Shown: piece after piece, positions 28,845 through 29,160 of the stretch
Layout of the letters: each line of letters begins with the position of its first letter
Numbering within the stretch: the first letter of the stretch is position 1
Source: Candidatus Saccharimonadota bacterium
Lineage (GTDB): Bacteria; Patescibacteriota; Saccharimonadia; Saccharimonadales; SZUA-47
Assembly: GCA_016700315.1 (NCBI GenBank)
Contig: CP065013.1
Location: 193,449 to 257,448 of the forward strand
Direction: 5' to 3'
DNA: 64,000 bases
Translations under genes and position numbers: made by a program
Notes under the pieces: generated by a model
Told to the model about the DNA's origin: nothing
Database searches by the model: none
What the model saw: the letters and a program-made list of their open reading frames with translations, nothing else

Positions 28845-29160
28845 AAGTATTGTGTATCATGTATGAATTAGACCTTAGACCCTAGACCCTAGACCCTAGA
28901 CCCTAGACCCTAATCACTCTAACCTCTAACCTATAACCTAATCTTGACTCTTGACTCTTGTCTCTCGGCTCTACCGAAATAGTACGAGGTGCGAGGTAGT
29001 TAGTAAGTATCTAGTATTATGTATAAAGTATGAATTTCCCCTCAGTAAACAGTCATCGGTATTTCTCTATCAACCATAAACTATCAACTATAAACTTGCT
29101 CCTAGACCCTAGACCCTAGACCCTAATCACTCTAACCTCTAACCTATAACCTCCCCCTAA
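28845..29160. repeat. mosaic heptamer array (largest copy)
   Basis: Abutting runs of different 7-mers, including TAGACCC x5, TCTAACC, GACTCTT, RGTNNNN, ATNNNGT, AACTATC and CCCTAGA x3. See findings. Confidence 0.9.

Follow-up and report, generated by a model that had tools for sequence, protein, structure and literature searches.

Mosaics of short heptanucleotide runs in intergenic DNA of a Candidatus Saccharibacteria species: a probable hypermutable, lineage-specific repeat family

Why should an intergenic spacer in a small bacterial genome be built almost wholly from units of seven nucleotides? The question is raised by a 64,000-nt stretch of DNA from a Candidatus Saccharimonadota bacterium (GenBank assembly GCA_016700315.1, contig CP065013.1, positions 193,449 to 257,448; hereafter the window), in which the spacer between gyrB and a surface-protein gene holds a mosaic of heptamer runs that we call array A. 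A preliminary description of this spacer had listed its heptamers and likened them to the short tandemly repeated repetitive (STRR) sequences of cyanobacteria. Our analysis suggests that, in one Candidatus Saccharibacteria species, array A probably belongs to a lineage-specific, hypermutable family of heptanucleotide microsatellite mosaics that behave like STRR sequences.

Heptad periodicity, modules and the dispersed family

Array A divides into short runs of related heptads, given below with module labels of our own (S, L, K, Q, R, P, T and U).

28841-29160, + strand: array A, in the spacer between gyrB and the surface-protein gene, almost wholly heptad-periodic
28841-28868: K, xxGTATx units
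28869-28910: P, one TAGACCT and five TAGACCC
28911-28938: T, TAATCAC, TCTAACC twice, TATAACC
28939-28973: U, starting with TAATCTT and GACTCTT
28974-28980: spacer
28981-29008: S'
29009-29036: K
29037-29071: Q
29072-29099: R
29100-29123: P
29124-29151: T, followed by a C-rich end

The order is K-P-T-U, then S'-K-Q-R-P-T. Identity between bases seven positions apart is 0.62 across 28841-29160, compared to 0.21–0.26 at other lags, and locally reaches a maximum of 0.78 (vs. 0.22). Tandem Repeats Finder, in whose output period 7 is dominant, reports six period-7 arrays here, the best being TAGACCC x6.3 at 28869-28912 and the others lying at 28917-28939, 28942-28965, 29067-29096, 29101-29125, and 29130-29153. 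In the window as a whole, a search for perfect tandem repeats of at least three copies with unit lengths of 4–15 returned only k = 7 (9 arrays, 254 nt), against 0.0 such arrays in 50 shuffles. A chance origin of the heptad signal is excluded. Identities at lags 7/14/21 are 0.298/0.287/0.278 in the window’s intergenic DNA (vs. ~0.26), no lag-7 signal was found in its genic DNA, and heptad arrays take up ~10% of its intergenic nucleotides. The runs set out in the preliminary description are therefore real: the signal is significant against shuffled controls, and a frame starting at 28841 reproduces exactly the heptads listed there.

Some of its finer statements need qualification. The runs do mostly abut, but three heptads that it left unlisted, CCGAAAT (28974), TCCCCTC (29037), and CTCTATC (29065), match neither neighbor, so that the absence of any non-periodic spacer was slightly overstated. 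A single fixed frame without indels holds as written but is largely trivial, as adjacent heptads at several module boundaries match at just 0–1 of 7 bases. Neighboring runs are related and in phase. One register along the whole array has no support, because the preference for multiples of 7 (phase coherence) is lost past ~60–70 nt and some strain alleles differ by 13 and 102+6 nt. The proposal that three units, or 21 bp, bring every third heptamer to the same face of the helix is not supported: identity inside arrays decays smoothly over lags 7/14/21/28 (0.61/0.51/0.42/0.37) with no boost at 21, and lags 10–11 are at background. The only higher-order period found is 14, which comes from alternating unit variants.

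Self-BLAST of the window placed kin of array A at 39250-39620, 46673-46805 (reverse strand), 56500-56721, and 63690-64000, confirming the recurrence previously noted at 39.3, 46.7, 56.6, and 63.8 kb and giving five copies in the window. The other four are as follows.

39292-39566, + strand: array B, K-S-L-K-Q-R-P'(TAGTCCC)-T; 3' of a terminator hairpin and ~80 nt upstream of a comM-like gene
46697-46805, - strand: array E, a short allele, head-K-P-T; upstream of the rpmB -35 element, from which its end is 27-34 nt away
56535-56699, + strand: array D, S-L-K-Q-R; flanked by a terminator hairpin (56503-56535) on one side and by a 549-aa gene (its stop codon) on the other
63726-64000, + strand: array C, head(GAACGAT..)-K-S-L-K-P-T-U; runs off the window end

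The recurring order across copies is roughly S-L-K-(Q-R)-P-T-(U), each module being a short run of 2–6 units. These units are TAGTAGT / AAGTAGT in S, AAATTCT / AAACTCT in L, xxGTATx in K, TTTCCCCTC followed by CAGTAAA / CAGTCAT in Q, AACCATA / AACTATC in R, TAGACCC in P (TAGTCCC in P'), TAATCAC with TCTAACC in T, and TAATCTT with GACTCTT in U.

Arrays at different loci have long exact stretches in common. An 80-nt stretch is common to arrays A and C of the window, which agree in it down to the variant first unit TAGACCT and the copy number; array A shares 111 nt with locus E of strain contig L011, which in turn shares 127 nt with locus A of contig L008. Because these stretches span degenerate, non-periodic parts, the arrays must have been copied from one another and are not independent products of slippage. 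The earlier view that they form a dispersed STRR-like family, not merely the outcome of local slippage, is borne out by these 80–127 nt of exact sequence common to non-orthologous arrays.

The ends recur as well. Copies C and E have a head in common, GGAAC-ATGAACGAGGAGGAG, which likewise consists of heptads (GAACGAT GAACGAG GAGGAGA), and a tail, ...CCTAACCGCTGC, is found at array B, array E, and L011. Paralogous flanking genes were rejected as the source of the head, since the proteins encoded beside C and E are unrelated; the head therefore belongs to the repeat. Both heads contain a mini open reading frame (ORF), ATG AAC GAG GAG GAG AAA A(C/T)C TAA (MNEEEKT or MNEEEKI; 63733-63756, and 46774-46797 on the reverse strand), preceded by a purine-rich stretch; this ORF is probably just incidental to the GAACGAT/GAGGAGA heptads.

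Two further arrays were seen outside the window. One (L035, 5886-6092), ~2–2.5 kb past the window end, combines K, S, and L with new ACTCACA / ACTCATG units and is flanked by a PilX-like gene and a tyrosine-recombinase gene. The other, from another metagenome (L013, CXWK01073718.1, 342-655), has the S module in both orientations (TAGTAGT..., ...TAACTAC) around P-type units and, unlike the window copies, could form long inverted repeats.

Allelic variation among strains

Alleles were compared between contigs encoding identical flanking proteins, ~10 per locus; the exact GyrB protein is present in many assemblies (NCBI, ENA, JGI, Logan). Contigs for locus C were sought via the gene neighboring the 369-aa gene at 62046-63155, as the exact 369-aa protein is not on record.

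At locus A the window and JGI contig L006 are identical at 566/566 positions, and at locus B four assemblies are identical. These agreements between independent samples and assemblers, together with allele differences that come in orderly 7-nt steps, leave an assembly or sequencing artefact with next to no credibility, even though many short-read contigs terminate inside arrays and one contig joins two of them. For array A, where the possibility had been raised beforehand, identical sequence in independent NCBI, ENA, JGI, and Logan assemblies settles that it is not an artefact. At 2137-2902 the joining contig (L037, from JGI 3300045333) passes from the left part of array C, on the side of the gene encoding a bPH-domain protein, through the common K-P-T block into the right-hand portion of array A and on to the surface-protein gene. 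Either this join is genuine (a recombination product or a circular junction) or the short-read assembly is chimeric. Short-read assemblies of this species are broken at the arrays and may be joined chimerically there, a concern for the quality of metagenome-assembled genomes (MAGs).

Strains that encode identical flanking proteins are separated by nine or more simple allele differences of exactly 7 nt, which supply the inter-strain copy-number variation that the preliminary description had proposed looking for. Single units of 7 nt, in modules S, K, and R, distinguish the alleles of locus D. One allele of locus B shows differences of -7, -7, +7, and +13 nt, and in another K-P(TAGACCC x2)-T replaces K-Q-R-P'(TAGTCCC x4)-T. 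Locus C, between the bPH-domain gene and tRNA-Arg(CCT), carries arrays of ~130 to ~480 bp with differing module sets; the ~480-bp array, in L036, ends beside the tRNA gene (L036 7679-7753). Locus E spans ~110 bp in the window vs. ~440 bp in L011. Beyond tRNA-Arg(CCT), the strains also differ in having a 366-aa ORF, a 226-aa hydrolase-like ORF, or none.

Larger changes are seen at locus A. In five assemblies (L002-L005, L007; compared with 28708-28840 of the window), gyrB and the surface-protein gene are separated by a gene for a 428-aa M16 peptidase; these assemblies retain just a Q-R-P-T half-array, and one breakpoint lies within the Q module. The flanking genes of the M16 and peptidase-less forms are 99.6–99.7% identical. 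The peptidase gene is absent from the window and from relatives with 81–84% GyrB identity, and relocation within the window was rejected, as no copy was found elsewhere in it. Other assemblies have yet another module set at this junction. Across the natural alleles, units slip, loci exchange modules, and genes come and go where arrays end; this hypervariability should make the arrays useful for strain typing.

Lineage restriction and competing explanations

We sampled syntenic regions of relatives with 81–94% GyrB identity. Gene order (surface-protein gene, then gyrB-gyrA) is kept in relatives at 94%, 84%, and 81%. In those at 81–84% the spacer upstream of gyrB is 150–380 bp and array-free, and in those at 84–94% gyrB and gyrA abut, versus a heptad-bearing spacer in the window. 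Exact 7-mer tandem dimers occur at 3.9–7.0 per 10 kb in the window vs. 0–0.46 in the syntenic loci of relatives, and this contrast indicates that the heptamer burst is specific to this lineage. Among 185,579 species representatives, the diagnostic 21-mer TAATCACTCTAACCTCTAACC was found as one stretch in one genome, an “uncultured Candidatus Saccharibacteria” MAG; GyrB homologues are annotated as Saccharimonadales or Saccharibacteria. The preliminary description had tied the standing of the family to its presence in close relatives and to family structure: the relatives are essentially array-free in the regions sampled, yet family structure is present. The cause may come to light in differences between array-rich and array-free species in their complement of replication, repair, and RNase genes.

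In a metagenome collection, a degenerate-pattern scan gave no matches and the exact 21-mer gave 3 loci. Since the scan missed an exact instance held by L006, the collection covers the organism poorly and absence there means little.

A lineage-restricted distribution resembling a recent invasion could also be the mark of a non-autonomous mobile element, that is, a composite cassette of ~150–450 bp copied in trans by a transposase, recombinase, or reverse transcriptase, with heptad slippage as secondary decay. Such an element would explain the exact stretches common to non-orthologous loci, degenerate and non-periodic parts included, as well as the recurring head and tail, and a tyrosine-recombinase gene does lie beside the further array just past the window. 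We nonetheless consider it quite improbable. The arrays have no terminal inverted repeats or hairpins (just trivial inverted repeats of 10–15 nt), no target-site duplication is evident at their boundaries, and no empty site was found at loci B, C, or D, where every strain sampled has an array. The head is heptadic like the rest, and BLAST with the arrays gave no match in phage and plasmid collections. Unrelated heptamer vocabularies are also present, and therefore a genome-wide 7-nt mutational bias is indicated instead of one element.

Related candidates were rejected as well. A miniature inverted-repeat transposable element or a repetitive extragenic palindromic (REP) sequence would need notable terminal or internal inverted repeats, which the arrays lack. 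A structured RNA or hairpin element does not fit the folding of array A (one fold) and array B (three), as DNA or RNA, which gave z = +0.3 to +2.3 relative to shuffled sequence, and Rfam 15 covariance models had no match at gathering or permissive thresholds. Bacterial interspersed mosaic elements (BIMEs, mosaics of REP sequences) and pneumococcal BOX modules resemble the arrays in being dispersed intergenic mosaics of a small module set in variable number. Their modules, however, are palindromic or hairpin-forming and ~35–60 nt long, whereas the arrays are direct 7-nt repeats that fold less than shuffled controls. Phage or plasmid origin was dismissed for want of any BLAST match. Ten viral contigs do contain arrays of TAGACCC, but these are simple ones without relation to the family, in DNA of different GC content; viral contig L012 (= L054) has a lone 28-nt T-like stretch without an array.

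It is also conceivable, though unlikely, that the arrays are not passive microsatellites and represent an active, lineage-specific copying process that recently invaded one Saccharibacteria species. This might take the form of a new repeat-propagating system that has neither inverted repeats nor hairpins nor target duplications, or of a heptad-reading protein that binds its sites and promotes their amplification. If true, active copying would rewrite promoter-upstream spacers, including that of the sortase-anchored surface protein, and would generate strain-level regulatory and structural diversity in a genome under extreme streamlining.

The explanation we favor, a hypermutable microsatellite mosaic family, would have three parts. 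Replication or repair slippage with a strong 7-nt register would add and remove units, and point mutation followed by re-amplification would give rise to new neighboring “dialects,” which would account for the kinship of adjacent runs and for the 14-nt alternations. Ectopic homologous recombination or gene conversion would copy blocks of modules between loci, homogenizing them within the genome and occasionally causing deletions or rearrangements at array edges. Finally, arrays would survive where they are harmless, in promoter-distal spacers, 3' untranslated regions (UTRs), and an operon spacer, and any effects on expression or genome plasticity would be side effects.

Several points weigh against this explanation. 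Slippage and gene conversion are deduced from patterns among alleles, and slippage alone leaves the 7-nt preference and the array-free sister species unexplained. Allele differences of 13 nt and 102+6 nt are not multiples of 7, and processes beyond unit slippage must therefore also act. The recurring module order could instead reflect a selected composite binding platform or a copying enzyme, and some junctions, such as that in L037, could be chimeric short-read assemblies and not true recombinants. A genome of ~1 Mb with ~10% of the window’s scarce intergenic DNA in arrays also sits uneasily with pure neutrality.

The flanking genes of array A and the two clear promoters are:

26737-28707, - strand: gyrB, left flank of array A
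28803-28775, - strand: gyrB core promoter TTGCCA-17-TATAAT, 11/12 consensus positions
29274-31187, + strand: surface-protein gene (637 aa), right flank of array A
46663-46634, - strand: rpmB promoter TTGACC-18-TATAAT, outside array E

The 637-aa protein has DUF7927/DUF11/PKD domains and ends in LPNTG, a hydrophobic segment, and a basic tail, a sortase signal that bears out the earlier naming of gyrB and an LPXTG-type surface protein as the flanks. Array A had also been said to fill the divergent gyrB/LPXTG-protein promoter region, but the gyrB core promoter is outside the array, which starts 38 nt upstream of the -35 element, and the boundary between conserved and strain-variable sequence sits just upstream of that element. 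With array ends 27–38 nt upstream of the gyrB and rpmB -35 elements, the arrays are best regarded as promoter-distal filler and not as core promoter.

The arrays might nevertheless be functional cis-elements, either multi-site platforms for a DNA-, single-stranded DNA-, or RNA-binding protein (for instance a nucleoid-associated or cold-shock-type OB-fold protein covering ~7 nt per monomer) or “volume-control” tracts for promoters and UTRs, with strain variation being adaptive, for example for the LPXTG surface protein. Module order is kept across loci, unit number is polymorphic between strains, four of the five copies lie between divergent genes and abut core promoters (the fifth, D, is between a terminator hairpin and a stop codon), and array A is upstream of a sortase-anchored surface protein. 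There are precedents: the number of heptamers in (ATCTTTC)n tunes expression of the hmw1A/hmw2A adhesin genes in Haemophilus influenzae (PMC12721329), deletion of heptamer repeats alters recO and recF promoter activity in Nostoc (bioRxiv 10.1101/2022.06.06.494920), and CspB binds with one protein per heptamer (reviewed in PMC4679880). We regard this possibility as rather unlikely, however, given that relatives with the same gene order have short array-free spacers, that alleles at one locus range over 130–480 bp with modules swapped or missing beside identical flanking proteins, and that the arrays lie outside the -35/-10 spacing of both clear promoters and also turn up within a 3' UTR, in the spacer of an operon, and in the tail of a coding sequence. 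No candidate binding protein was found. The arrays most likely have no dedicated cellular function, because they are absent in relatives, vary widely in their alleles at each locus, and are tolerated in such 3' UTR, operon-spacer, and coding-tail positions.

A narrower functional proposal concerns the P modules, which read (GGGTCTA)n/(GGGACTA)n on the opposite strand, so that G3 tracts with 4-nt loops could form G-quadruplexes acting on transcription or replication. Runs of 6 and 3 units in array A, 4–6 in B, and 6 in C fit a G3-N4 x4 motif; P modules with at least four G3 tracts and short loops on one strand are at 28869-28910 (6 units), 39502-39542, and 63898-63941. G-rich heptamer repeats of this type, GGGNATC and GGGGA(T/C)T, form G-quadruplexes in vitro in the cases of Xanthomonas and Nostoc (PMC4692102), and those repeats are likewise intergenic and vary in length between relatives. 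The P module is, however, one of ~8 module types here and makes up just ~10–20% of each array; array D and, at locus C, the L035 allele lack it altogether, and its copy number of 2 in the L017, L021, and L011 alleles is under the G-quadruplex minimum. That G-quadruplexes explain the arrays is accordingly very improbable.

No ORF of at least 50 aa is present in the array A spacer. A perfect DnaA box (TTATCCACA) at 29174-29182, just past the array tail, is kept in the M16-carrying strains. With no cluster of such boxes and no switch in GC skew, which is negative from 12 to 64 kb, a replication origin at array A was rejected.

Known heptamer repeats, and other features of the window

In many bacteria, no long microsatellites are as over-represented as the heptanucleotide repeats, and cyanobacterial examples have been on record since 1990. 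STRR sequences are the heptanucleotide arrays of Calothrix, Anabaena, and Nostoc, with units CCCCAGT (STRR1), TTGGTCA (STRR2), and CAACAGT (STRR3). We know of no established function for them, nor, more generally, of an established cause of the 7-nt preference or function of bacterial heptamer repeats. The arrays described here are similar in consisting of tandem 7-nt units, with several unit types per genome and the same units at many intergenic loci. They differ in that the host is a ~1-Mb bacterium of the candidate phyla radiation (CPR) and not a heterocystous cyanobacterium, that none of the STRR1–3 units occurs as a tandem dimer on either strand of the window, and that their runs follow a recurring higher-order arrangement with blocks copied between loci. 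“STRR-like” hence refers to behaviour only, as the arrays depart from STRR in both unit sequence and host.

Mixed arrays of heptamers are known from cyanobacteria, Beggiatoaceae, and some Bacteroidetes (PMC4679880, PMC4692102). Direct-repeat arrays of this kind in spacers of Microcystis, Beggiatoaceae (TAACTGA), Gramella, and Aequorivita (PMC4679880) resemble those in the window, in that different heptamers are mixed per spacer and close relatives have shorter, repeat-free spacers between the same neighbors. Many of those arrays, however, directly precede start codons. The window arrays follow terminators or come to an end before a promoter is reached, and the TAACTGA unit is absent from them. 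All of the known units considered (STRR1–3, TAACTGA, GGGAATC, GGGGAYT, and ATCTTTC) are missing from the window arrays. The hmw tracts resemble array A in being a heptamer simple sequence repeat (SSR) upstream of a surface-protein gene, with strain-variable copy number, recombination between paralogous tracts, and broken short-read assemblies. They differ in being one homogeneous run (11–63 units) in a 5' UTR hairpin, compared to the short, mixed, and unstructured runs here. In phase-variable SSR loci of the hmw type, unit number sets expression from a tract in an ORF, between -35 and -10, or in the 5' UTR; at gyrB and rpmB the tract is upstream of the -35 element.

Mrazek et al. (2007; cited in PMC4692102 and PMC4679880) found heptanucleotide SSRs over-represented in bacterial genomes, and polymerase slippage with a 7-nt register has been suggested as the cause. 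The window agrees in its exclusive preference for unit length 7 among long SSRs and departs in its modular dispersed family and the sharp contrast between species.

A known bacterial heptamer-repeat phenomenon is thus also present in an ultra-small CPR bacterium, in a streamlined genome that spends intergenic DNA on it. The apparently new aspects are the host lineage, the ordered composite modules copied between loci, and the sharp presence/absence between sister species. In agreement with the preliminary description, a full-text literature search on heptamer and simple sequence repeats found no prior description in CPR or Saccharibacteria.

The window also contains heptad arrays other than the five copies:

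4873-4954, + strand: CAATTTT and TACTTGC x3.7 arrays in an intergenic spacer, with a vocabulary other than that of the mosaic family
14025-14091, + strand: GAATGAG x4.4 and TCGTTCT x3.9 arrays, adjoining the 5S rRNA gene
22242-22268, - strand: heptads of the GAACGAT type, preceding the 16S rRNA gene on its 5' side and sharing their unit with the heads of arrays C and E
26649-26680, - strand: small heptad array inside the gyrB-gyrA spacer, ACTCTTG ACTCATG GCTCATG ACTCAAG ACTCGCT on the - strand
33980-34120, - strand: degenerate heptad array in the C-terminal coding part of a 948-aa DUF8128/HerA-like ATPase gene

Translated, the last of these gives a linker in which Q, P, A, T, and S abound (...QPTANNQQPLANGQQAPATSQNSQQLTATGQQLTASS...). 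Homologues of the ATPase in relatives are 967–1046 aa long, compared to 948 aa in the window.

Arrays B and D each follow a candidate small RNA gene on the + strand. The first has a promoter TTGACA-17-TAATAT (39065-39093) and a perfect hairpin (39208-39241), and the second a promoter TTGACT-17-TACCAT (56332-56360) and the terminator hairpin at 56503-56535. Both are conserved across strains, with no convincing match in Rfam.

The rRNA genes are all on the - strand (16S, 20741-22170; 23S, 15293-18408; 5S, 13891-14002), and genes for tRNA-Ala and tRNA-Ile lie between 16S and 23S on the + strand. In a relative with 84% GyrB identity, an insertion of ~130 nt near the 5' end of the 16S rRNA gene (L048, 15914-16044) consists of heptad-like ATCATTT / AAATGAA arms, which might fold into a hairpin. 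The 23S match is ~190 nt longer than the model, and just downstream of the 16S gene are a LAGLIDADG ORF (20060-20449, - strand) and a match to group-II-intron D1-D4 (20458-20539).

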